A stretch of DNA of 64,000 bases, taken from contig OY970063.1 of the NCBI GenBank assembly GCA_963705275.1, positions 412,438 to 476,437 of the forward strand, given 5' to 3'. Of the stretch, positions 35,708 to 50,476 are shown piece by piece. The notes beneath the pieces are model-generated. The model worked only from the letters and a program-made list of their open reading frames with translations. It was not told the origin of the DNA and did no database searches. Each line of letters starts with the position of its first letter. The first letter of the stretch is position 1. The position numbers were made by a program, and so were the translations under genes. This stretch comes from an uncultured delta proteobacterium. GTDB lineage: Bacteria > Desulfobacterota > Syntrophia > Syntrophales > UBA2185.

Positions 35708-38323
35708 TCATTTTGGCAGATTATCCAGTATCGCTTTCATCTTCTCGATGTCATATGGAACATCAACTCTCCAGCAGAATTCATTCTCCTTGAATTCTGA
35801 AACGAGGGGATCATCCGAATATCCGCATGAAACAATGGCCTTGACATGAGGATCTATGGTAAAAAGTTCCTTCAAGGTATCCTTCCCGCCCATCCCGTCT
35901 GGCACGTTCAGATCCAATACGACCGCATAAAATGGATAACCTTTTTCTGCGGCCATCTTATAGAGATCAACGGCTTCACTGCCATTCTTTGCATACTCAA
36001 CTTCATATCCAAGATAGTTAAGGACAATGCCTGTTGAATTCCGTACCGCCTCATCGTCATCCATAACCAATACCTTACCCTTTCTGGTAATTATTTGTTC
36101 CGTGACGCCTTTCCCTGAGGAGTCCAGCTGCGGTGAAGCAGGCAAATAGACGATGACGGTAGACCCCATACCCGGTTCAGATTCGACGGTGATGAAGCCA
36201 TCGTGTTTCTTTATGATGGAATAGCATACGGCAAGTCCCAGACCCATGCCTCTTGCGCTTCCTGTCGGCTTCGTCGTGAAATAAGGGTCAAATATTTTCG
36301 GCAAATCCTCCTTCGAAATACCGGCGCCATGATCCCTGATGGACCATTTCACATAACTGCCATCTTTCAACGGCAGACCGTTGCCTGCCGATATATTCAC
36401 ATTTTCGGCACGAATAGTTATTATTCCGACGTTATGCATAGCTTCGCGCGCATTGATCAAGAGATTGTGGATCACCTGTCGGATCTGCACATCATCCATT
36501 TCTACAGGCCACAGATTATCAGGCAGCGAGGATTCACATATTACATTAGAACCGCTCAGAGGAAGATCTACAGAATCCGTCAATAACTTTGAAATGGAGC
36601 CGATTTTTCTTAGGGGTTCGCCTCCTTTGGCGAAGGTCATCAAACGATGGGCCAATTCCTTCGCCTGATGACCCACCTTCTCAGCTATTTCGAGCCCCTC
36701 TCCCAAGAGTTCCTGTTGTTCATCTGGAAGAGATAATTTGGCGGCAAATATATTGCGCAGCATGACAGATACTAAATTATTAAAGTCATGCGCAATTCCA
36801 CTGGCAAAAATACCGAGTGATTCAAGCTTATTAACTCGTGACAACTCTTCTTCCGCCCTTCGGCGATCCGTAACATCATCCAGTGTTTCTATTGCGCCAA
36901 CAAGACTTCCTTGGGTATCCCTGATTACCGCTGCAGTAAAGTGAAGCCATTTCCCCGTCTCTCCCAGTTCCGGAAAAAAGTCTGTTGCCTCATAAGCCTC
37001 GTCCACCAACCGCGACTTCGTGTACTTATCAAGATACCACTGAGGAATTGACTCCAAGGCTTGATCCACCAATAGATCCGCCAAACAGGGTCTCTCTGCG
37101 CCATAGAATGCCCTCCATTGCCCTTTTGTGCCGACGATCTCTTCCGCCTTGATGCCACTGAGTTCCTCCAACGCCCTGTTCCAGTATATTACTCTGTGGT
37201 CTTTCCCGATTACGAACGTTGGAATGGGGGAACCTTCAATAACTCTGTGTAATCTCTGCTCACTCTCCTTGAGCTTTTCCTCCGCCTTCTTACGATCGGT
37301 GATGTCAGTAAAGATGGCGATACTACCTAAATACTGCCCATCCTTGTCATATACCGGCTTTGGCGAAACCAAGACTTGAATCTTATTGCCATCTTTGTGG
37401 GTGATAACAATTTCATAGGGGTCATCTTCCCCCTTTTCTCTCTTAATCCGTTGTTCCTGGAAAATTTTTTGATTCTCCTCTTCTACATACAATTTTGCGG
37501 CAGGATAACCGACAAGCTCTTCCTTGGGATATCCGGTCATCTCACAGAATTTCCTATTAACAAAGGTGCGAATACCTTTATTATCAACCATCCCTAAACC
37601 TTCATTCATGGTCTCAATCAGTAGCCGGTATTGCTCTTCGCTCTCCCTGAGCTTTTCCTCCGCCTTCTTACGATCGGTGATGTCAGCAAAGATGGCGATA
37701 CTACCTACATACTGCCCATCCTTGTCATATACCGGCTTTGGCGAAACCAAGACTTGAATCTTATTGCCATCTTTGTGGGTGATAACAATTTCATAGGGGT
37801 CATCTTCCCCCTTTTCTCTCTTAATCCGTTGTTCCTGGAAAATTTTTTGATTCTCCTCTTCTACATACAATTTTGCGGCAGGATAACCGACAAGCTCTTC
37901 CTTGGGATATCCGGTCATCTCACAGAATTTCCTATTAACAAAGGTGCGAATACCTTTATTATCAACCATCCCTAAACCTTCATTCATGGTCTCAATCAGT
38001 AGCCGGTATCTCTCTTCGGTCTCCCGCAGGGCATTTTCCGATTTACGGATAGAGTAGAAGAGCGGTGCAATCAAGGCAACTCCTGCCACCATCAGCACGG
38101 ATATAACAACGCCAACCAAATCGTCGAGCAGTGTGATATTAGGGGTTACTTGTATATGAAGAAAGGGCAATACATCTACGATGCGCCTCACAGCCATGAG
38201 TACAAGCCCAATCGCTATTAATATCCACGCGGCTCGAGCTTCTGTTACGCGTATCAACCTAAGCGCCAAGACGGCTGCCACTACTTGAAGCAAAACTGAA
38301 ATCAATAAAATATACTCAATCAT
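35708..38323 (-). CDS. Hybrid sensor histidine kinase: TM region, three PAS domains (two are near-identical copies), HisKA/HATPase, receiver
   Basis: H-box IAHDFNNL, G-boxes DHGAGI and GMGLGL, and a receiver with MDDDE...DLNVPDGMGG. Confidence 0.92.
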   Translation of the reverse strand: MIEYILLISVLLQVVAAVLALRLIRVTEARAAWILIAIGLVLMAVRRIVDVLPFLHIQVTPNITLLDDLVGVVISVLMVAGVALIAPLFYSIRKSENALRETEERYRLLIETMNEGLGMVDNKGIRTFVNRKFCEMTGYPKEELVGYPAAKLYVEEENQKIFQEQRIKREKGEDDPYEIVITHKDGNKIQVLVSPKPVYDKDGQYVGSIAIFADITDRKKAEEKLRESEEQYRLLIETMNEGLGMVDNKGIRTFVNRKFCEMTGYPKEELVGYPAAKLYVEEENQKIFQEQRIKREKGEDDPYEIVITHKDGNKIQVLVSPKPVYDKDGQYLGSIAIFTDITDRKKAEEKLKESEQRLHRVIEGSPIPTFVIGKDHRVIYWNRALEELSGIKAEEIVGTKGQWRAFYGAERPCLADLLVDQALESIPQWYLDKYTKSRLVDEAYEATDFFPELGETGKWLHFTAAVIRDTQGSLVGAIETLDDVTDRRRAEEELSRVNKLESLGIFASGIAHDFNNLVSVMLRNIFAAKLSLPDEQQELLGEGLEIAEKVGHQAKELAHRLMTFAKGGEPLRKIGSISKLLTDSVDLPLSGSNVICESSLPDNLWPVEMDDVQIRQVIHNLLINAREAMHNVGIITIRAENVNISAGNGLPLKDGSYVKWSIRDHGAGISKEDLPKIFDPYFTTKPTGSARGMGLGLAVCYSIIKKHDGFITVESEPGMGSTVIVYLPASPQLDSSGKGVTEQIITRKGKVLVMDDDEAVRNSTGIVLNYLGYEVEYAKNGSEAVDLYKMAAEKGYPFYAVVLDLNVPDGMGGKDTLKELFTIDPHVKAIVSCGYSDDPLVSEFKENEFCWRVDVPYDIEKMKAILDNLPK
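37262..38010 (-). repeat. Tandem direct duplication, 2 x 378 bp (126 codons, in frame), one PAS domain per copy
   Basis: 37271-37631 and 37649-38009 align without gaps over 361 bp with 2 mismatches (37309 T/37687 C and 37330 A/37708 C), compared base by base. Confidence 0.95.
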
Positions 38324-38748
38324 GACTCGCCTTCGTCGCCTTAATGCGAAGATAAATAATAAAATCCTAGCAGATTTTCACTGCGGGTGGAATTTCTATC
38401 ACAAAAGCCCCTGCACATGAAGGAATATTTGATACGCCACGCTCTTCCCGTTGCGCCCCCACATTGGTCGTGGTCATCGTGCGGAGCTACGAAATGTCAG
38501 AACGTGCTGTAAGTGATAATATGCCACTTTGCTTAATATCTGTACAGCAACACTTTTTACGCTTCCGTATAATCGGAGAAGTAGGCGTGTTTTCTCCAGA
38601 GTAGTCAAAAATTCTGTTGACACAGCGAATAGCATATGGTAAGCGCACTCCCGTACTTTACGGACGCATTGTGTTGCGATAAGAACATCCTGGTATTTAT
38701 TGACAACAGACAAATCCTCTAAATATCTCTAGAAGTTGGAAATTTAAA

Positions 38749-39111
38749 TTGACCCTCCACGAATTAAAAAAGCTTCTTGACGCAGAAGTCCTGATCGGTG
38801 AAGACCAGATGGACATGGAAGTGAAGACAGCCTTTGTCGCCGACCTCATGAGTGACGTTCTTGCCTTCGCGACTGCAGGGAGTCTTTTGATTACAGGTTT
38901 AACAAATCCTCAGGTTGTAAGGACAGCAGATGTGCTTGATATAGCTGCAATAATCATGGGTCGAGGGAAATTACCATCCCAGGAGACCTTCCAGTTAGCG
39001 GAGGAACTTAACATCCCCATTCTTACGACCAAGTATATTCTGTTTGAGATCGCTGGACGGTTGTACGCTAAAGGTATAAGAGGTTGTATAGAAAAAGTGG
39101 GGAGTAAATAA
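38749..39111 (+). CDS. DRTGG-domain protein (copy 1)
   Basis: 120 aa with a TTG start. The pattern ...FVADLMSDVLAFA..GSLLITGLTNPQVVRTADVLDIAAIIMGRGK...IPILTT...FEIAGRLY matches small DRTGG proteins. Confidence 0.8.
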   Translation: MTLHELKKLLDAEVLIGEDQMDMEVKTAFVADLMSDVLAFATAGSLLITGLTNPQVVRTADVLDIAAIIMGRGKLPSQETFQLAEELNIPILTTKYILFEIAGRLYAKGIRGCIEKVGSK

Positions 39112-39119
39112 GCGTAATC

Positions 39120-39566
39120 GTGGATGAAAAACCCCTGTATGAAGGAAGTTTTACAGTCGTCGGCGGTAATTTTGACAATGCTGGAGAAGTGTCAACTAAT
39201 ATCAAGTCGATTTTGAAGAAGATAGGGCTCTCCAAAGATGTGGTCAGGAAAGCGGCCCTCGTTGCTTATGAATCGGAAATAAATATTGTGTCTTATGCTA
39301 GAAAAGGGATGATCAGACTCCGCGTTGTCCCTGACTGCATAATGATAGAGGCTATAGATGAAGGCCAGGGGATTCCGGACATCGAGCAGGCCATGCAACC
39401 CGGATTCTCGACGGCGAATCAGAAGATCAGGGAAATGGGGTTTGGTGCCGGAATGGGATTGTGCAATATAAGAAGCTTTTCTGATGTATTTCAAATCTCG
39501 TCTGAAATCGGCAAAGGCACACACCTCAAAATGATCATCAAGGCGAACAGCAGCGTTATTCAATAG
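39120..39566 (+). CDS. RsbW/SpoIIAB-like GHKL serine-kinase-type ATPase ('anti-sigma regulatory factor')
   Basis: 148 aa with a GTG start, N-box-like ESEINIV, G1 DEGQGIPD and G2 GFGAGMGL. Confidence 0.75.
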   Translation: MDEKPLYEGSFTVVGGNFDNAGEVSTNIKSILKKIGLSKDVVRKAALVAYESEINIVSYARKGMIRLRVVPDCIMIEAIDEGQGIPDIEQAMQPGFSTANQKIREMGFGAGMGLCNIRSFSDVFQISSEIGKGTHLKMIIKANSSVIQ

Positions 39567-39588
39567 TCGCCAAAAGGAGTGCCGTGAC

Positions 39589-39933
39589 GTGGATTTAGAA
39601 TCTGTCGTCAAAGCCCTGAATTTAAAGGTCAGATCCGGTGAGGACAAGCTGAAAGCGGAGATTCGCGGAGGGTACGTAGGGGATTTGTTGAGCGATGTCA
39701 TGGCAAACAGCAAAGAGGGCGACATCTGGATTACCCGCCAGGTTCATCAGAATATCGTTGCCGTGGCCAGTCTTAAAGAACATGCGGGTATAATCCTCGT
39801 TCACGGAAGCGAGCCTGCAAAGGACACCATCGAAAAAGCCATCAAAGGGGGCGTTCCTGTAATGGTATCGGATCTTCCGTGTTTTGAGATTACCGGCAGA
39901 ATATACGCATTAATAAGCAAGAAGACCGATTGA
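39589..39933 (+). CDS. DRTGG-domain protein (copy 2)
   Basis: 114 aa with GGYVGDLLSDVMANSKEGDIWITRQVHQNIVAVASL...FEITGRIY. Confidence 0.8.
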   Translation: MDLESVVKALNLKVRSGEDKLKAEIRGGYVGDLLSDVMANSKEGDIWITRQVHQNIVAVASLKEHAGIILVHGSEPAKDTIEKAIKGGVPVMVSDLPCFEITGRIYALISKKTD

Positions 39934-39996
39934 AGCAGGAGCGGAGAAAAGAAAACACCGACAGCGGCCTTTTCTTCTCATGGATACTAAGTCTAT

Positions 39997-40737
39997 ATGC
40001 TCAGGGCATTTCGTTGCGATCTCCATGTACATACGTGCCTTTCACCCTGCGCAGACTTAGATATGTATCCTCGGGCAGTGGTAGACAAAGCCGTTGCCGA
40101 AAAATTGGACATCATTGCTATATGCGATCACAATGCCTCGGAGAATGCACGATTTGTATTGAGGTCTGCTGAGGGGAAACCGCTCACAGTCCTCCCGGGG
40201 ATGGAAATAACAAGCAGTGAAGAAGTTCATCTGCTGGCTCTTTTTGATACGTTGGATGGTCTGAAAAACATCCAGAATATTATTTATGCTCATCTTTCCG
40301 GTACGAATCGAGAGGAGATATTCGGATGCCAAGCTATCGTCAATGACTTAGACGAAGTTGAGGGCTTTAACGATAGGTTTCTCCTCGGAGCAGCCAAGTT
40401 ATCGCTGCCTGAAATTGTTGATCAGATTCATGGGTTCGGCGGGCTTGTGATCGCCTCTCATATCGATCGGGAAAGCTATAGCGTCATCAGCCAATTGGGG
40501 TTTATCGACCCGGATATTCATCTTGATGCCCTTGAGGTAACGCACCACACCGGATTTAAAGAGGCCCGGATAAAGTATCCAGAACTATCAGATTACCCTA
40601 TCATTGAGTCATCCGATGCGCATTTTATTAATGACATCGGAGGCGTGGCGACAACGATATTTATGGAAAGTGGTACTGTCTCGGAACTGAAAATGGCCTT
40701 TAGGAAACAAGGTGGCAGATATATTCAGGAGACATAG
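39997..40737 (+). CDS. PHP-domain metal-dependent phosphoesterase
   Basis: CDLHVHTCLSPCA...ICDHN...SHIDR...SSDAH histidine/aspartate pattern of the PHP fold. Confidence 0.8.
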   Translation: MLRAFRCDLHVHTCLSPCADLDMYPRAVVDKAVAEKLDIIAICDHNASENARFVLRSAEGKPLTVLPGMEITSSEEVHLLALFDTLDGLKNIQNIIYAHLSGTNREEIFGCQAIVNDLDEVEGFNDRFLLGAAKLSLPEIVDQIHGFGGLVIASHIDRESYSVISQLGFIDPDIHLDALEVTHHTGFKEARIKYPELSDYPIIESSDAHFINDIGGVATTIFMESGTVSELKMAFRKQGGRYIQET

Positions 40738-41286
40738 TTGCTTGAGATCTCCCTGCATATCCTGGATATTGTAGAAAACTCCACCAGGGCCGGTGCTAAT
40801 ACCGTATGTATTGACATTATAGAAAATACAGCAAAGGACATCCTGTCTTTAGAAATACGGGATAATGGTTCCGGGATGACCGCGGATGTTCTAAATAAAG
40901 TCATTGATCCATTTTTCACGACGAAAACGGTTCGCAGCGTCGGGTTAGGGCTCCCCATGCTTGCCCAGGCAGCCGAAAGAGCAGATGGTAGATTTATAAT
41001 CGAATCGAAGGGCGGTGAAGGAACGAGGGTTGCTGCAGATTTTAGACTCAGTCATATTGACAGACAGCCCCTTGGAGACATATCGGGTACACTTGTCACC
41101 CTGATTGCCGGAAATGAGGACGTCGATCTTATTTATCGTCATGAACATAATGGTCAGGTATATATTTTCGATACACGAGAAATTAAAAAAGAAATTGAAG
41201 ATATACCAATTAATCATGTGGCTGTTCTGAACTTCATCAGGGATCATGTAATAGAAGGCCTGAAGGAAATCGGGGCAGAGGCATGA
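40738..41286 (+). CDS. Stand-alone HATPase_c (GHKL) protein lacking a DHp/His phosphoacceptor domain
   Basis: TTG start abutting the PHP stop. N-box ENSTRAGA, G1 RDNGSGM, and FFTTK...GLGLPM. Confidence 0.75.
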   Translation: MLEISLHILDIVENSTRAGANTVCIDIIENTAKDILSLEIRDNGSGMTADVLNKVIDPFFTTKTVRSVGLGLPMLAQAAERADGRFIIESKGGEGTRVAADFRLSHIDRQPLGDISGTLVTLIAGNEDVDLIYRHEHNGQVYIFDTREIKKEIEDIPINHVAVLNFIRDHVIEGLKEIGAEA

Positions 41287-41308
41287 AGCTTTAAGGAGGA
41301 TTGAATGC

Positions 41309-41827
41309 ATGAAAGCGGGTAACGGAGATTTTGACATAAATAAAGAATTTACTGCCGAACAACTTGCAAAGCTTGACGACATCATCAAGAAATCCAAGGA
41401 CAAACCGGGCGCGCTAATTCCTGTTTTGGAGGAAGCGCAGATGGTCCTTGAATTCTTACCGATGCCTATTTTGCAGATAATTGCAAAAGGGCTGAATCTG
41501 CCGATGAGTCGTGTATACGGGGTCGTGACCTTTTATTCATTCTTTACGATGACCCCCCGCGGCAAGCATACATTGCGCGTGTGCCTCGGTACAGCTTGCT
41601 ACGTCCGCGGAGGCAAGTCCATCATGGAGGCAATACAGAAAGAGCTCGGCGTAAAAGAAAAAGAGACAACAGCCGACAGGCTCTTTTCGCTTGAGTCCGT
41701 CAGATGCCTTGGCGCCTGCGGATTGGCCCCGGTCATAGTCATCACCGAAGACGTCCACGGCCGGATGAAAACGCAAAAGGTAAGGGAAATACTGAGTCCA
41801 TACAGGGAAGAAACTGTATCAGCCTAA
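41309..41827 (+). CDS. NuoE/HydC-like thioredoxin-fold [2Fe-2S] subunit
   Basis: CLGTAC...CLGACGLAP cysteine pattern; 172 aa. Confidence 0.9.
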   Translation: MKAGNGDFDINKEFTAEQLAKLDDIIKKSKDKPGALIPVLEEAQMVLEFLPMPILQIIAKGLNLPMSRVYGVVTFYSFFTMTPRGKHTLRVCLGTACYVRGGKSIMEAIQKELGVKEKETTADRLFSLESVRCLGACGLAPVIVITEDVHGRMKTQKVREILSPYREETVSA

Positions 41828-41854
41828 CAAATTTTTCAGACGAGGGAAATAGCT

Positions 41855-42223
41855 ATGGCAAAACTCACGATAGCAGATTTAAAGAAGATCAAGGATAAAG
41901 TTCATTCCGAAACCTCATTGAGGGCGGGGGAGCATAGGGGTAAGGTAACGGTACACATGGGAACCTGTGGTATTGCCGCAGGTGCACGGGCAGTAATGGA
42001 CTCGTTGATGGGGGCGATCGCCGAAGCCAATGTATCCGATGTCATCGTGACAACGTCGGGATGCGCGGGACTATGCAGCCAGGAGCCTATGGTAACTGTT
42101 GAGCTTACGGGGAAGAACCCTATAGTCTATGGTAAGATCGATGCAAACAAGATGCGACAGATATTTATGAGACATGTCATGCAGGGAGAGGTGCAGACCC
42201 CGTTTGCGATAGCCAAGGTCTAA
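41855..42223 (+). CDS. Thioredoxin-like [2Fe-2S] ferredoxin
   Basis: 122 aa with GTCGIAAGA...TSGCAGLCSQEP. Confidence 0.8.
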   Translation: MAKLTIADLKKIKDKVHSETSLRAGEHRGKVTVHMGTCGIAAGARAVMDSLMGAIAEANVSDVIVTTSGCAGLCSQEPMVTVELTGKNPIVYGKIDANKMRQIFMRHVMQGEVQTPFAIAKV

Positions 42224-42285
42224 ATATCCATCAATACTAATGAACAAGTTAATTATACTAAAATGCTAAGGAGGAAGATATCCAC

Positions 42286-45200
42286 ATGAAAGTGTTTCGT
42301 TCACATTTTTTGATCTGTGGAGGAACCGGTTGTCATGCTTCAGGAACTGGCAAGGTCAAGAAGGCCTTGATGGAAGAGATTGATAAGAGAGGTCTTTCAA
42401 AAGACGTCAAGATCGTTGAGACCGGTTGTAATGGATTCTGTGCCTTGGGGCCTATTATGGTGGCCTATCCCGAGGGCGTTGTGTATATGTCAATGAAAGC
42501 TGAAGATATGCCTGAGCTGGTAGAGGAACATTTGGTCAAGGGCAGAATACTTCAAAGGCTTCTCTACAAGGAACCCACGACGCAAGAAGTGATCCCCGCC
42601 ATGAATGACATACCCTTTTTCGCCCTTCAGGAACTGAGGGTATTGAGAAATAGAGGGCTCATTGACCCGGAAAACATCGATGAGGCAATTGCGAGGGATG
42701 CCTACTCTGGAATGGCTAAGGCCCTGACGGAAATGACGCCCGAACAGATTGTTAAGGAGGTTTTGGATTCAGGTCTACGAGGCAGAGGTGGGGCAGGCTT
42801 CCCCACAGGTCTTAAGTGGAGATTCTGCTCCCAGTCCCCCAGCGATTTGAAATATGTTCTCTGTAATGCCGACGAGGGAGACCCCGGAGCATTCATGGAC
42901 AGGAGCGTCCTCGAGGCTGACCCCCATGCCGTCCTCGAGGGAATGGTGATTGCCGCCAAGGCCATCGGCTCTCACAGCGGATATATTTACTGCCGTGCTG
43001 AGTATCCTCTGGCCATCCACCGGCTGAACGTCGCCATCGACCAAGCCAAGGCGTACGGCCTCCTCGGTAAAGATATTCTGGGGACTGGTTTTGATTTCGA
43101 TTTACAAATCTACCAGGGCGCTGGCGCCTTCGTCTGCGGCGAAGAGACCGCCCTGATGACTTCAATTGAAGGCAAGCGCGGCATGCCAAGGCCTCGCCCG
43201 CCCTTCCCTGCCATTGCGGGACTCTGGCAGAAACCTTCTATTTTGAATAACGTAGAGACCTTTGCCAATATCGCACAGATCATTTTGAAGGGTGCTTCCT
43301 GGTACAATGCTGTAGGGACAGAAAAGAGCAAAGGAACGAAGGTATTCGCTCTTACAGGAGACGTGAACAACGTCGGCCTCGTGGAAGTTCCCATGGGAAC
43401 CTCTCTCGGGCAAATTGTTTATGACATCGGTGGTGGAATCCCCCGCGGCAGGAAGTTCAAAGCCGCTCAGCTGGGCGGTCCATCCGGTGGCTGTATTCCC
43501 GCTGAGCATCTTAATGCTCCTATTGACTTTGAGCGCGTCACGGAACTGGGAGCCATCATGGGTTCCGGCGGTATGATCGTTCTGGATGAAGATAAATGCG
43601 CAGTGGACATGGCCCGTTTCTTTATGGACTTCGTTCAGGACGAGTCCTGCGGAAAGTGTACACCCTGCCGTGAAGGAACCAAGAGAATGCTTGAGATGCT
43701 GACGAACATCAGCCAGGGCAAGGGCAAGGAAGGAGACATCGAACTCTTGGAAGAGATGGCGGCCATAATCAAGAACGCATCGCTCTGCGGTCTAGGACAG
43801 ACGGCCCCGAATCCTGTGCTCAGTACCATTCGGTATTTCAGGGATGAATATGAGCAGCACATCAGAGATAAGCGTTGCAAAGCCGTCGTTTGCTCCGCCC
43901 TTTTCAAATCACCCTGTCAGCATACATGCCCGGCAGGTATGGACGTTCCGGCTTATATCGCCCTCATCAGGTCCGGACGTTTTGAAGATGCGTACAAGGT
44001 AATGTTGCAGACGAATCCCCTCCCCTCTGTGTGCGGAAGGGTCTGCGATCACAAGTGCCAGTCGAAGTGCCGCAGAGGCAAGCTTGACGAATCCCTTGCC
44101 ATCAAATTCTTAAAGAGATTTATTACCGACAATGCGCCGCGGCCCAAAATCACTCCCGTTAGTGTAACGCGGAAAGAAAGAATAGCCGTCATCGGCGCAG
44201 GGCCTGCCGGTCTGACGGCGGCTCGGGATCTGGCACGCAGAGGATATAAGGTAACTGTATTCGAGGAACTTTCGGAACCAGGTGGAATGCTCCGCTGGGC
44301 TATTCCTGCTTACAGGCTGCCGAGGGAAACCCTTGCCAGTGAAATTAATGACAATATTAAATCTCTGGGAGTAGAAATCAAATGCAATACCCGCGTGGGC
44401 AAAGACATTTCTTTTGAACAGGTGGGCAAAGATTTCGATTACATCTTCCTCGCGCCCGGTGCCCAAAAGAGCCAGCCCATGGGCGTTCCCGGAGAAAATC
44501 TAAAGGGCGTCTACGGAGGAGTTGAATTCCTCAGAGATTTTAATGCCAATGAGGAAGCCTGGTTGAGCGGCAAGAAAACGCTCGGTTCAAAAGTGGCTGT
44601 AATCGGTGGTGGTAATTCCGCTATCGATGCTGCCCGCGTTGCGCTCCGTCTGGGGGCCGATGTAACCATTCTTTACCGTCGCGAGAGAAAGGATATGCCG
44701 GCGGCTGAGGAAGAGATCATCGCTGCGGAAGAGGAAGGCGTCAAGATTGAATATCTTGTCGCCCCGCTAAAAATCAACGAAAAGGATGGCAAGATAAACG
44801 GCATCACCTGTCAGAGGATGAAGTTAAGTGAGTTCGACCGAAGCGGGCGAAAGAAACCTGCGCCAATTGCGGGCTCCGAATTTACCCTGAGCGTAGATGC
44901 CGTCGTCGCCGCAATCGGTCAGACGTCAGACATGACCTTCGTCCCCAAGGACAGCGGTGTGAATGTCAATAAATGGTCCACTTTTGATCTTGCCAAGGGA
45001 AGCAAATCTCAGACAACGAATCCAAAATTCTTCACCGGTGGTGATGCACTAACCGGACCCGACACCGTCATCGGCGCCATTGAGGCCGGACACCAGGCAG
45101 CCAGAGATATGGACAGCCACATCAGGAAAATCAACGGTGAACCTGCTTACGTGGAACCGCCTGAGGATAAGATTGAAATTCCCTTTATCATTGATGAGGA

Positions 45201-45348
45201 GGCCGTGGAAGCTCCTCAGGCAAAGATGCCGGAGTTGCACGGGCCTGAGCGTAAACGCAATTTCAAAGAGGTCGAATTGGGCTACTTGAGAGAAGTGGCT
45301 ATTCAGGAAGCGTGCCGCTGTCTGCGGTGCGATGCTGAAATCAGCTAA
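42286..45348 (+). CDS. Fusion protein: 2Fe-2S domain + NuoF/HydB-like FMN/NADH module + GltD/NfnB-like FeS-FAD-NAD(P)H module
   Basis: 1020 aa. N-terminus has CGGTGC...CNGFC. The NuoF part has GRGGAGFPTGLKW, ESCGKCTPCREG and SLCGLGQTAPNP. From about aa 545 (nt ~43,900) it has CQHTCPAGMDVPAYI...VCGRVCDHKCQSKC. Two Rossmann motifs follow (VIGAGPAGLTAA and VIGGGNSAIDAARV...ILYRR), then a terminal CLRCD. Confidence 0.88.
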   Translation: MKVFRSHFLICGGTGCHASGTGKVKKALMEEIDKRGLSKDVKIVETGCNGFCALGPIMVAYPEGVVYMSMKAEDMPELVEEHLVKGRILQRLLYKEPTTQEVIPAMNDIPFFALQELRVLRNRGLIDPENIDEAIARDAYSGMAKALTEMTPEQIVKEVLDSGLRGRGGAGFPTGLKWRFCSQSPSDLKYVLCNADEGDPGAFMDRSVLEADPHAVLEGMVIAAKAIGSHSGYIYCRAEYPLAIHRLNVAIDQAKAYGLLGKDILGTGFDFDLQIYQGAGAFVCGEETALMTSIEGKRGMPRPRPPFPAIAGLWQKPSILNNVETFANIAQIILKGASWYNAVGTEKSKGTKVFALTGDVNNVGLVEVPMGTSLGQIVYDIGGGIPRGRKFKAAQLGGPSGGCIPAEHLNAPIDFERVTELGAIMGSGGMIVLDEDKCAVDMARFFMDFVQDESCGKCTPCREGTKRMLEMLTNISQGKGKEGDIELLEEMAAIIKNASLCGLGQTAPNPVLSTIRYFRDEYEQHIRDKRCKAVVCSALFKSPCQHTCPAGMDVPAYIALIRSGRFEDAYKVMLQTNPLPSVCGRVCDHKCQSKCRRGKLDESLAIKFLKRFITDNAPRPKITPVSVTRKERIAVIGAGPAGLTAARDLARRGYKVTVFEELSEPGGMLRWAIPAYRLPRETLASEINDNIKSLGVEIKCNTRVGKDISFEQVGKDFDYIFLAPGAQKSQPMGVPGENLKGVYGGVEFLRDFNANEEAWLSGKKTLGSKVAVIGGGNSAIDAARVALRLGADVTILYRRERKDMPAAEEEIIAAEEEGVKIEYLVAPLKINEKDGKINGITCQRMKLSEFDRSGRKKPAPIAGSEFTLSVDAVVAAIGQTSDMTFVPKDSGVNVNKWSTFDLAKGSKSQTTNPKFFTGGDALTGPDTVIGAIEAGHQAARDMDSHIRKINGEPAYVEPPEDKIEIPFIIDEEAVEAPQAKMPELHGPERKRNFKEVELGYLREVAIQEACRCLRCDAEIS

Positions 45349-45380
45349 TCTCTCTTTAGCAATCAGAATTGTTTTACCTT

Positions 45381-45409
45381 GAACCCCGTCCCCTGGACGG
45401 GGTTCTTTT
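45381..45409 (+). terminator. Intrinsic terminator closing the operon
   Basis: GAACCCCGTCC-cct-GGACGGGGTTC 11-bp stem followed by TTTT. Confidence 0.7.
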
Positions 45410-45423
45410 ATGAAGTGGCGGAA

Positions 45424-45936
45424 ATGGCAGAGATAAAAAGCACGCTGGACATCATCATGGAACGGACAAAGAACCTGACCATGACGGATAAAGAGAAGGC
45501 ATCCTTCAAGCGGAAAGAAGCAGAAGGTAAAGTTAAAGGATGGATACAAAAATATAAGGATGGAATAGTCGGGCTTGATATACTGAGGTCAGACTTCGAG
45601 AAGGAGAGAAAAGAATATCCGGAAGTGCGCCAGATTCTCCAGTCGCAGCTCCTCGACTGCTTGAGACTGACTGGGGACAACGGAAAGATATTAAGACTTC
45701 TTGAAGATGTCCTTGGGATAAGTACAAATACCATTAAGAGTACGATTCAGTCTCTCAAGCAGGAGACGGAGATTCTGCGGAAGGAGAGAATGGCAACAGT
45801 CAGGGACGACCTTAGAGAAAAGAAGATATACGGATCAGCGGTTGTTCCCAATCCGGATCGCGACGGATATTTGCAGGAGAGCATACTGAAGGCGGAATCT
45901 GAGATGAGGAAACGGTTGAAGGCTCTTGAAGGATAA
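45424..45936 (+). CDS. Hypothetical coiled-coil protein
   Basis: The ORF is open from 45379, but that stretch is the terminator hairpin. The Met at 45424 (MAEIKSTLDIIMERTK...) is the first start after it. Confidence 0.5.
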   Translation: MAEIKSTLDIIMERTKNLTMTDKEKASFKRKEAEGKVKGWIQKYKDGIVGLDILRSDFEKERKEYPEVRQILQSQLLDCLRLTGDNGKILRLLEDVLGISTNTIKSTIQSLKQETEILRKERMATVRDDLREKKIYGSAVVPNPDRDGYLQESILKAESEMRKRLKALEG

Positions 45937-46007
45937 GGCCCCTACTTTCCTCAACCTGCAAAGGTGCGGATGAATGCGGCGCAACGGCAAGATTCTTTGC
46001 CGTGACG

Positions 46008-46649
46008 TTATAGATAATCGAACCAGTAGTTTTTTATCTTCTCGAAGTTCATCTTTACTTCTTTTTTCCCCGCCACAATCTCTCCATGCCCGGAGAGAAG
46101 ATACTCTACATCCATCTCCGATATCCTCTTGATACTCTCCTTGAGCATGCCGCCGTTTCCTCCGGGCAGATCGGTGCGTCCTATACTCTGGCTAAAGACC
46201 AGGTCGCCGGTAAACAACGCCTTCTTCAGAGGCCAGTAGAGACAGATGGACCCGGGGGAGTGTCCCGGAGTTGCTATCACCTCGAACCTCTCTTCACCGA
46301 TGACCAAATCTCCCCCTTGCAGGAAGAAATAAGGCTCCGGAATCTTAAAATATTTTCCGGCGAACTCGCTGATAAAACGGTACTCTTCAGCACTCATGGC
46401 AAGCATGGTAGATTTGCCAAGCCCTTGCACCGCCTCCAGATGATCAGGATGACCGTGTGTCGCGATAACAAGATCGATCCGCTCCGGAGAAATGCCCAGG
46501 GCATTCAAATTCTTAAGCACATTATCAAACAGATGCAGATGGCCGGGATCTACGAGGATCTTCAACTCACCATCGATAAGATAGGTATTGCAGTTGTTCT
46601 GTGCATGGGCCCTCCAAATGAAGGCATGGAGACCATCGAATATTTGCAT
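46008..46649 (-). CDS. MBL-fold metallo-hydrolase
   Basis: THGHPDH motif and later ATPGHSPGS. Confidence 0.88.
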   Translation of the reverse strand: MQIFDGLHAFIWRAHAQNNCNTYLIDGELKILVDPGHLHLFDNVLKNLNALGISPERIDLVIATHGHPDHLEAVQGLGKSTMLAMSAEEYRFISEFAGKYFKIPEPYFFLQGGDLVIGEERFEVIATPGHSPGSICLYWPLKKALFTGDLVFSQSIGRTDLPGGNGGMLKESIKRISEMDVEYLLSGHGEIVAGKKEVKMNFEKIKNYWFDYL

Positions 46650-50399: not shown

Positions 50400-50476
50400 G
50401 GGCGATTAGCTCAGTTGGATAGAGCGCTGGTCTCCGGAACCAGAGGCCCCGGGTTCAAGTCCCGGATCGTCCGCCA
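50400..50476 (+). tRNA. tRNA-Arg (anticodon CCG), CCA encoded
   Basis: Hand-folded cloverleaf of 77 nt: acceptor GGGCGAT/ATCGTCC, D arm GCTC-AGTTGGATA-GAGC (A20), anticodon arm CTGGT-CTCCGGA-ACCAG, T arm CCGGG-TTCAAGT-CCCGG, discriminator G, then CCA. Confidence 0.9.

Follow-up and report, generated by a model that had tools for sequence, protein, structure and literature searches.

Gene content of the operon

The window analysed here, a stretch of 64,000 nucleotides (nt) of contig OY970063.1 from an uncultured delta proteobacterium of the Syntrophales, contains five short plus-strand genes at 38749-41286 that run into genes for a NuoE/NuoF-type flavoprotein. The five genes constitute a cassette encoding two DRTGG proteins, a SpoIIAB-like putative kinase, a PHP phosphoesterase, and a GHKL ATPase, and both the identity of the cassette and its association with NuoE/NuoF genes in other bacteria are near certain. 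NuoE/NuoF-type flavin modules are the NADH entry or exit of complex I, electron-bifurcating hydrogenases, formate dehydrogenases, and transhydrogenases. Enzymes based on these modules set the redox balance of anaerobes and syntrophs.

A preliminary description made from the sequence had reported the five genes with their positions, lengths, spacing, and domains, all of which were upheld by an open reading frame (ORF) check of the window and by Pfam and NCBIfam profile searches. The Pfam matches of all five cassette proteins exceeded the gathering scores, the gaps after the five ORFs were in turn 8, 22, 63, 0, and 22 nt (the last being to the NuoE gene), and the start codons (in order TTG, GTG, GTG, ATG, and TTG) agreed with the N-termini of approximately 80 homologues each. 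The closest homologues of the cassette share 87-93% identity and come from Syntrophales metagenome-assembled genomes. The features of the operon, with protein lengths in amino acids (aa), are:

38749-39111, plus strand: DRTGG adaptor 1 (DRTGG1), 120 aa; Pfam DRTGG 2.6e-10
39120-39566, plus strand: SpoIIAB/RsbW-like GHKL protein, putative Ser/Thr kinase, 148 aa; Pfam HATPase_c_2 4.6e-08
39589-39933, plus strand: DRTGG adaptor 2 (DRTGG2), 114 aa; Pfam DRTGG 7.2e-06
39997-40737, plus strand: PHP metal-dependent phosphoesterase of the EndoQ/TrpH lineage, 246 aa; Pfam PHP 2e-07 and PHP_C
40738-41286, plus strand: GHKL ATPase, 182 aa; Pfam HATPase_c 1.5e-13 and HATPase_c_3 5.6e-07
41309-41827, plus strand: NuoE/HoxE/BfuC-like [2Fe-2S] subunit, 172 aa; Pfam 2Fe-2S_thioredx 5.8e-50
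41855-42223, plus strand: thioredoxin-like [2Fe-2S] ferredoxin, HydD/BfuD-like, 122 aa; NCBIfam fdxn_Clost 7.6e-09
42286-45348, plus strand: NuoF::GltD fusion, 1020 aa; Pfam Complex1_51K 3.9e-46, NADH_4Fe-4S 3e-37, Fer4_20 6.1e-26, and Pyr_redox_2 4.3e-32
45381-45405, plus strand: intrinsic-terminator-like hairpin with an 11-bp stem containing 8 G-C pairs, followed by TTTTAT

The terminator-like hairpin sits just 3' of the NuoF::GltD stop codon and no long-stem terminator-like sites were found within 38.7-45.3 kb; the pattern at 38.7-45.4 kb fits a single transcription unit, short of proof. The preliminary description had also pointed to the missing classical partners of such proteins, and this held for the operon, in which Pfam and NCBIfam scans identified no STAS, sigma factor, HisKA/DHp, receiver, or DNA-binding domain. 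The same scans found no PP2C phosphatase in the operon, a PHP phosphoesterase being present in its stead.

The window NuoE matched NCBIfam HoxE at 2.4e-50, below the cutoff of that family, and the cysteine motifs of the ferredoxin are conserved in 69 homologues. The NuoF::GltD protein comprises an N-terminal 2Fe-2S domain, a flavin mononucleotide (FMN)/NADH domain, and a 4Fe-4S domain, followed by a GltD-type module with 2x[4Fe-4S] and a flavin adenine dinucleotide (FAD)/NAD(P)H domain. Judging from this layout, the NuoE/ferredoxin/NuoF::GltD enzyme is probably an NADH-NADPH oxidoreductase of the Bfu/Nfn type whose domains should allow electron transfer linking the FMN site (NADH) and the FAD site of GltD (NADPH), possibly with coupling to ferredoxin. 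A beta subunit enlarged by a GltD part has been described for one Vallitalea hydrogenase (PMC6163223).

Conservation of the cassette and its redox partners

A one-genome-per-species scan for the PHP signature peptide returned at least 595 loci, of which the best 80 by similarity to the query were examined together with four more contigs annotated with Pfam (loci are designated by L and a number). The loci were annotated by phmmer using the window proteins and proteins chosen from the loci as a limited query set, with Pfam spot checks. Gene content was counted in 52 well-flanked loci with at least 2.5 kb upstream and at least 5.5 kb downstream of the PHP gene, and sensor variants in 66 loci with an adequate upstream flank. 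The well-flanked loci encoded DRTGG1 in 50 cases and the SpoIIAB-like kinase, DRTGG2, and the GHKL ATPase in 51 cases each, with an order of cassette genes that was identical in all of them and is the same in the window. The cassette was identified in more than 10 phyla, including Thermodesulfobacteriota, Nitrospirota, Acidobacteriota, Bacteroidota/Ignavibacteria, Cloacimonadota, Fidelibacterota, Zixibacteria, Spirochaetota, Stahlbacteria/WOR-3, KSB1, and Clostridia. An ordered string in 50-51 of 52 loci from many phyla is far beyond chance. No further conserved gene position, including one for a STAS gene, was found across 81 loci, and no DNA-binding domain occurs at any conserved cassette position. 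The PHP family comprises 421 clusters at 50% identity (E<=1e-30, representative library), and more than 7900 proteins match its profile at E<=1e-20 in the 90% library; there were no named Firmicutes or Thermotogae among the best 120 matches of the profile search.

Three variants of the cassette were distinguished. The HydS type (33 of 66 loci) has a gene of approximately 1.25 kb between the kinase and DRTGG2 genes, encoding two Fer4 domains, Fe_hyd_lg_C, and a C-terminal FeS domain (PF04060), which by domain content corresponds to the group D (M2e) putative sensory [FeFe]-hydrogenases. The CBS type (8 of 66) carries an N-terminal CBS pair on the kinase, a fusion found in 12 loci overall. The remaining 25 loci are sensor-less and include the window, most Syntrophales loci, and several Nitrospirota loci; the HydS-like gene is absent from the window cassette, where the gap between the kinase and DRTGG2 genes is only 22 nt. 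Seen beside the other two variants, the window cassette is the minimal core of a modular system and no orphan invention. The preliminary statement that the cassette has no input was therefore too strong, as related cassettes contain an inserted HydS-like sensor gene or a fused CBS pair, and ligand binding by the DRTGG and GHKL domains themselves is possible. Two further observations concern the sensor-bearing loci. In L082 (573-6472), EtfB/EtfA and CCG-domain (HdrD-like) genes precede, on the same strand, a HydS-type cassette and a [NiFe] Bfu-type hydrogenase operon. The CBS-type loci L047 (12447-13382), L051 (373-1266), L061 (3821-4786), and L066 (5169-6071) encode a NuoE of approximately 300 aa with an N-terminal HdrA-like FAD-binding segment (by sequence motifs only) and a 4Fe-4S motif.

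NuoE and/or NuoF genes lie within 10 kb of the cassette in 47 of the 52 well-flanked loci. With a handful of NuoE/NuoF genes per genome, the chance of meeting one in a 20-kb neighbourhood is at most a few per cent, by estimate rather than computed control. The gene following that for the GHKL ATPase (within 400 nt) encodes NuoE in 41 of 80 loci and a small ferredoxin in 16 of 80; 64 of 81 loci have the small ferredoxin, mostly at a distance of one or two genes past the GHKL ATPase, and 27 of 81 have the NuoF::GltD fusion. The cassette is also interleaved with the structural genes, lying between NuoE and ferredoxin/NuoF in L027, L035, L036, L050, and L075, and between NuoF and NuoG in L039, L051, L061, and L066. 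A DRTGG gene (a DRTGG1 paralogue) occurs between NuoE and NuoF of a divergent operon in L046 and L077. In the Desulfomonilaceae locus L080 (5484-19100, annotated with Pfam) the cassette is split inside a complete complex I operon in the order DRTGG1, CBS::kinase, nuoA-D, DRTGG2, PHP, GHKL ATPase, nuoE, ferredoxin, nuoF, nuoG, nuoH, nuoI, nuoJ, and phmmer annotation gave the same arrangement in L038. By this gene order, the cassette directly precedes the N-module genes in complex I; NuoB/NuoD contexts were further identified in L037, L044, L045, L067, and L079.

The enzyme that uses the flavin module varies among the loci. The partner is a [NiFe] hydrogenase (NuoG-like plus HoxY/HoxH) in 13 loci, including the close Syntrophales relatives L001 and L010, an [FeFe] HydA in four, including L003, L017, and L021, and a formate dehydrogenase or other molybdopterin subunit in 16, some with an in-frame stop. 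NuoG/FdhA-like genes split by a single in-frame stop directly after NuoF::GltD were observed in L007 (15589-18399), L016 (17639-20710), and L019 (5385-8090), the stop being consistent with the selenocysteine codon of an NAD(P)-linked formate dehydrogenase. At least 10 sensor-less loci had no recognised catalytic subunit, several of them with stand-alone operons resembling that of the window: the next gene after NuoF::GltD is on the opposite strand in the Syntrophales loci L008, L009, L012, and L020, nothing recognisable follows in L013, L018, and L022, and the near-identical relative L002 runs on into the same 185-aa ORF as the window. As this ending at NuoF::GltD recurs in several relatives, the window arrangement is a recurrent architecture and no truncation.

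These data bear out the preliminary suggestion that the cassette tracks NuoE/NuoF rather than H2, since the association spans [NiFe] and [FeFe] hydrogenases, formate dehydrogenases, complex I, and loci with no recognised partner. The accompanying claim that it occurs without any hydrogenase was correct for the 64-kb window, in which no NuoG/HydA-like gene was found and whose stand-alone operon recurs elsewhere, and did not stand as a statement about the genome, as close Syntrophales relatives carry NuoG-like plus HoxY/HoxH, HydA, or FdhA genes immediately past the same NuoF::GltD. The cassette is genetically dedicated to the NADH-oxidising NuoE/NuoF module, whatever enzyme uses that module. 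Its persistence without an H2 sensor and without a hydrogenase beside the flavoprotein module makes the module itself the likely target.

The operon of the window is flanked upstream by the following features:

35708-38323, minus strand: divergent membrane-anchored hybrid histidine kinase with three PAS domains, kinase core, and receiver; Pfam PAS x3, HATPase_c, and Response_reg
38324-38748, no strand: divergent intergenic region of 425 bp between the hybrid kinase gene and DRTGG1, presumed promoter site

The divergent kinase gene 425 bp upstream had been described correctly, and the further proposal that it supplies the missing phosphodonor was weakened because it adjoins the cassette as a lineage-specific gene, with synteny confined to the closest relatives (L001, L002, L004, and L015), and is missing from most other Syntrophales loci. 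A histidine kinase also lies near the cassette in L019 and L021. The intergenic region 38324-38748 contained no match to the sigma-54 consensus and no sigma-70 consensus match was reported for it, and Rfam gave no match at E<=0.1 across 38200-46100, i.e., no riboswitch or leader RNA upstream of the cassette. The hybrid kinase gene contains a 378-bp tandem duplication (37263-38025, 2.0 copies, 98% identical) that doubles one PAS domain, and its orthologue in L004 is approximately 126 aa shorter, consistent with a recent duplication in the window lineage. Downstream of the operon, the 185-aa ORF (45379-45936) belongs to no Pfam or NCBIfam family and is conserved only in L002; an ATG near 45421 probably serves as its start, because the TTG overlaps the terminator hairpin. 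A tRNA-Arg(CCG) at 50400-50476 is followed to 54080 by approximately 3.5 kb of low-GC DNA (0.42 vs. approximately 0.47 elsewhere) with only small ORFs (<150 aa) that may be an integration remnant or non-coding DNA.

Cassette proteins and proposed mode of action

The two DRTGG proteins are full-length paralogues (34% identical, no gaps) with matching motifs, DLMS35DV in DRTGG1, nearly invariant in 78 homologues, and DLLS35DV in DRTGG2, and both families share a C-terminal GR(L/I)Y motif. The DL(M/L)SDV motif is specific to the DRTGG proteins of the cassette and is missing from the CBS-pyrophosphatase regulatory insert, the only solved DRTGG relative. The 148-aa protein is a putative kinase of the HATPase_c_2 GHKL Ser/Thr type, with N, G1, and G2 boxes (E-x-x-x-N, DxGxG, and GxGxG) conserved in 75 homologues, a match to NCBIfam spIIAB below the cutoff (1.2e-14), and the SpoIIAB entries 1til and 1l0o as nearest Protein Data Bank (PDB) relatives (1.3e-07).

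Among 78 diverse homologues of the PHP protein, residues H12, D44, H45, E70, H155, D207, H209, S16, and C18 are invariant and H10 and H78 nearly so; the metal ligands form a full set and S16 and C18 are family-specific (signature LH[IV]H[TS]xLSPC). The best PDB match of the PHP profile was Endonuclease Q (EndoQ, 6e-19), and Foldseek of the PHP model also returned EndoQ (1e-12), then TrpH-like proteins and RNase AM. The EndoQ match is confined to the PHP part, and the 246-aa protein is without the Zn-ribbon and C-terminal helical DNA-binding domains of EndoQ (approximately 400 aa).

The GHKL ATPase combines a MutL-like N-box (HILDIxENSxxAGA) with a histidine-kinase-like ATP lid (DPFFTTK...GLGLP), and its N, G1, and G2 boxes are conserved among homologues. 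Its AlphaFold2 model had a mean predicted local distance difference test score (pLDDT) of 89.6 and a predicted template modelling score (pTM) of 0.87. In Foldseek searches, residues 1-105 superposed on histidine-kinase catalytic and ATP-binding domains, the whole protein gave only weak PDB matches to GyrB, MutL, and TopoVI-B (template modelling score 0.45-0.57), and BCKD kinase was among the matches with 30-37% local identity. The C-terminal alpha/beta subdomain of approximately 75 aa had no Pfam or convincing structural match. An invariant S105-H106-I-D-R-x-P-L-G-D (residues 105-114) lies directly past the GHKL core; by eye this SHIDRxPLGD motif resembles the HisKA H-box (SHELRTPL), the C-terminal 88 aa give no HisKA or other credible Pfam match, and it is treated here as a conserved motif only.

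Gene fusions suggest physical links among the cassette proteins. DRTGG1::kinase fusions occur in L056 and L075, and PHP::GHKL ATPase (HATPase_c) natural fusion proteins of 395-433 aa fit the 0-nt gap between the corresponding genes in the window. On this pattern of fusions, the cassette falls into two sub-modules, one made up of DRTGG1 and the kinase and the other of DRTGG2, PHP, and the GHKL ATPase. In the Nitrospirota loci L054 (7639-8529; Pfam Response_reg 4.7e-32 and 2Fe-2S_thioredx 9.9e-50) and L072 (1879-2766) a receiver is fused to NuoE, in genes that adjoin the cassette and a NuoF/NuoG-formate-dehydrogenase-type operon. Such fusions indicate that phospho-signalling is wired straight into NuoE in some lineages; no description of them was found in the searchable literature, the coverage of which is incomplete.

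A post-translational control of the flavoprotein is plausible. In the mechanism proposed here, the cassette would act as two physically coupled sub-modules in which the ATP-dependent GHKL enzymes would be the writers, and the PHP phosphoesterase the eraser, of a phosphorylation or nucleotide state. This state would be carried on the paralogous DRTGG adaptors (invariant DL(M/L)S35DV) and/or the neighbouring NuoE or ferredoxin and would gate, at the post-translational level, how the flavoprotein complex works or assembles. Where a locus has a HydS-like or CBS sensor, this would bias the switch by H2 or adenylate status, and the input of the sensor-less form could be ATP, the complex through its own redox state, or a ligand bound to a DRTGG or GHKL domain. 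The logic would be akin to SpoIIAB/SpoIIE partner switching or to the control of 2-oxoacid dehydrogenases by PDK/PDP. In support are the domain identities, the conserved catalytic motifs of all three enzymes, the gene order, the interleaving with structural genes, the varied partners, and the fusions. The combined statement that the five window genes are the sensor-less core of a widespread, conserved signalling cassette gating the NuoE/NuoF module is put forward with even confidence, and the writer/eraser mechanism itself tentatively, as close to an even call.

Several points weigh against this proposal. The activities, phosphorylation sites, and protein contacts of the cassette are predicted ones, and the survey drew on the 80 closest matches to the query out of at least 595 loci, which do not make up a random sample. 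Five of the 52 well-flanked loci (L052, L059, L068, L076, and L079) lack NuoE/NuoF within 10 kb and, of the Pfam-annotated contigs, L083 has Hdr-like neighbours and L084 keeps only a ferredoxin beside the cassette. The nearest relatives of the PHP protein (EndoQ, TrpH-like proteins, and RNase AM) are nucleases and nucleotide phosphoesterases, and the PHP protein-tyrosine phosphatases CpsB and YwqE were not in its top 50 matches. From its MutL-like N-box, the GHKL ATPase may be an ATPase switch rather than a kinase. A concatenated PHP and GHKL ATPase model mimicking the natural fusion (built with an unpaired alignment and four natural fusions) had confident domains (pLDDT 88.4) with uncertain relative placement (pTM 0.62). 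Finally, two-component kinases or receivers, including an NtrC-type activator, flank the cassette in approximately 20 of the 52 loci.

The last point bears on an alternative in which the cassette is a transcriptional front end that passes its state to a two-component system or sigma-54 activator, here the PAS hybrid kinase, and so sets operon expression with the complex left unmodified. Histidine-kinase cores lie within 10 kb in 20 of the 52 loci and receiver domains in 13, and in Nitrospirota the GHKL ATPase is followed by a single-domain receiver (L076 and L079) or directly by an NtrC-type REC-AAA-HTH protein (L059). In addition, the divergent hybrid kinase is shared by the window and its four closest relatives, and sensory hydrogenases are assumed in the literature to regulate transcription (PMC6163223, PMC3561251). 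However, most loci, including most of those from Syntrophales, have no kinase, receiver, or DNA-binding gene nearby, the conserved cassette positions and the window intergenic region are devoid of DNA-binding domains and sigma-54 matches, respectively, and the interleaving with structural genes and the receiver::NuoE fusions point to the protein complex itself, such that a transcriptional role is considered unlikely. The ancestry of the PHP protein raises the alternative of a nucleotide or nucleic acid, rather than a protein, as substrate of the PHP-GHKL pair, which would degrade a signal (pAp-, Ap4A-type, or cyclic nucleotide) bound by DRTGG or CBS domains or tune operon expression by ATP-gated RNA cleavage. 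The kinase of one variant carries a CBS pair, a domain known from other proteins to bind adenosine nucleotides, the NCBIfam matches of the PHP protein include RNase RNM and 3',5'-nucleoside bisphosphate phosphatase, and the GHKL ATPase has a HATPase_c_3 match beside its MutL-like N-box. The missing EndoQ domains, a cassette without a nucleic-acid-binding domain or a conserved cyclase or synthetase for a signal molecule, the lack of a structured RNA match in the operon (Rfam), and a SpoIIAB-like kinase left without an obvious role make this quite unlikely.

The tight interleaving with NuoE, ferredoxin, NuoF, and NuoG and the exact position before the N-module genes in complex I operons would suit a role in the ATP-dependent assembly or maturation of the flavin/Fe-S N-module, through cofactor insertion or quality control, rather than in regulation. 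GHKL ATPases include chaperones such as Hsp90, and the phosphoesterase could act on flavin nucleotides. This explanation is regarded as improbable, since the optional HydS-like or CBS sensors and the adjacent receivers argue for signalling, and the E. coli complex I and characterised, heterologously expressed Bfu enzymes have no such genes on published maps (PMC9304861, PMC12018979). Incidental adjacency, or a mobile or defence module (PHP nuclease and GHKL ATPase) beside redox genes, is hardly credible: the PHP domain has weak matches to the defence proteins PDC-M49A (1.5e-06) and Ppl (7.6e-06) and to TrlF-family ATPases (NCBIfam), but the other four cassette proteins had no match in PADLOC, the NuoE/NuoF association is ordered across many phyla, and the redox and sensor domain fusions are incompatible with chance or a defence island. 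The defence-system reading was consequently rejected as essentially refuted, the shared PHP domain being its sole basis.

The proposed post-translational gating can be extended to a general on/off switch of NuoE/NuoF in complex I, bifurcating [NiFe]/[FeFe] hydrogenases, NAD-linked formate dehydrogenases, and Nfn-like transhydrogenases, operating via reversible phosphorylation of DRTGG Ser35 and/or NuoE or the small ferredoxin with sensors for H2 (group D HydS) or adenylate (CBS) that can replace one another. This general form is possible and rather doubtful. If true, it would identify the long-sought signalling partners of the group D sensory hydrogenases, establish DRTGG as a new phospho-acceptor or adaptor domain in place of STAS, provide a bacterial counterpart to the kinase/phosphatase control of mitochondrial dehydrogenase complexes, and open a way to engineer H2, formate, and NAD(P)H fluxes.

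Comparison with known systems

In the Bfu family (HydABC, NiFe-HydABCSL, and NfnABC/Stn) and the Hox diaphorase modules, the window enzyme has counterparts for its BfuC/NuoE-like, BfuB/NuoF-like, and BfuD/HydD-like ferredoxin proteins. Its NuoF has an N-terminal 2Fe-2S domain as in BfuB, and its relatives run on into NuoG-like plus [NiFe], HydA, or FdhA genes. In contrast to these enzymes, the window has no BfuA subunit, and a GltD module (Fer4_20 and Pyr_redox_2) replaces the C-terminal 2x[4Fe-4S] ferredoxin-like domain of BfuB. The cassette genes are not discussed in the paper on the Bfu family (PMC9304861).

The cassette resembles the partner-switching modules SpoIIAB/SpoIIAA/SpoIIE and RsbW/RsbV/RsbU in its small HATPase_c_2 GHKL kinase with SpoIIAB-like G1/G2 boxes, its small co-encoded partner that is sometimes fused to the kinase, and its opposing phosphoesterase. 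It differs from them in having DRTGG for the STAS antagonist, PHP for PP2C, no sigma factor, and a redox enzyme as presumed target. The control of mitochondrial 2-oxoacid dehydrogenases by PDK/PDP and BCKDK/PPM1K serves as a working analogy, a redox enzyme of several subunits being turned on and off there by GHKL-fold protein kinases together with a phosphatase of its own; homology with the cassette is limited to the GHKL fold, and targets and adaptors differ. Endonuclease Q and TrpH/YciV (RNase AM, pAp phosphatase) are the closest relatives of the PHP protein in sequence and structure and share the full metal ligands, but the cassette protein differs from Endonuclease Q in its shorter length of 246 aa without Zn-ribbon and C-terminal domains, the invariant S16 and C18, and a redox-enzyme rather than DNA-repair context. 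Compared to a two-component system, the window operon has no cognate receiver, the only one being inside the divergent hybrid kinase, and the 182-aa GHKL ATPase has no HisKA match, with the invariant His106 following the catalytic domain. The window cassette is therefore distinct from a classical partner-switching module, from Endonuclease Q, and, in having no receiver, from a two-component system.

The closest known arrangement is found in the gene clusters of HydS, the group D/M2e (HydDB 'C1') hydrogenase, such as the TamHydS context, TTE0887, Cthe_0335, Athe_1292, and Halsa_1862-1871. Group D M2e/C1 [FeFe]-hydrogenases lie upstream of bifurcating hydrogenases, often parted from them by a 'histidine/serine kinase', and their sensory role has been inferred (PMC3561251, PMC3608648, PMC8542988, PMC6163223); this "sensory hydrogenase plus kinase" association is on record for Firmicutes without a mechanism. 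Halanaerobium Halsa_1862-1871 encodes an anti-sigma Ser/Thr kinase, Fe-S hydrogenase, PHP protein, NuoE, histidine kinase, ferredoxin-like protein, NuoF, and HydA plus an unidentified ORF (PMC4237134), in agreement with the statement in the preliminary description that the same gene string precedes NuoE/NuoF-type hydrogenase operons of Firmicutes. The same statement for Thermotogae was probably wrong, because Thermotoga is listed with a PAS-type C/D(M2f) sensor instead of the DRTGG/PHP cassette (PMC3561251). The HydS clusters share with the cassette the anti-sigma-type Ser/Thr kinase, the PHP protein, and the ATPase-domain-only 'histidine kinase' beside NuoE, a small ferredoxin, and NuoF (PMC4237134, PMC3561251), and the HydS-like gene of the surveyed loci is exactly between the kinase and DRTGG2 genes. 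The window operon differs from them by its Syntrophales host, its NuoF::GltD fusion, and the absence of a HydS-like gene or hydrogenase.

The DRTGG components of the HydS clusters are undiscussed in the searchable papers. No paper was found that treats the DRTGG/PHP/GHKL genes as a unit, their HydS-less or CBS variants, or the complex I and formate dehydrogenase contexts, or that joins DRTGG, hydrogenase, and PHP, those naming DRTGG together with hydrogenase deal with unrelated matters, and nothing relevant was found on HydS with a kinase or phosphorylation, in a searchable literature that is incomplete. As the preliminary description had supposed, the system is without a published mechanism: of its components only TamHydS, a 'sensory' [FeFe]-hydrogenase of group D, has been characterised (spectroscopically), and the 2026 study of it concludes that its C-terminal cluster does not report H2 and that its interaction partners must be identified (PMC13104023). 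The cassette of the window is thus a new, sensor-less variant of a kind of cassette already known yet uncharacterised, and the comparison yields testable candidate partners of the group D sensory hydrogenase in the form of two DRTGG adaptors, two GHKL ATP-binding proteins, and a PHP phosphoesterase.

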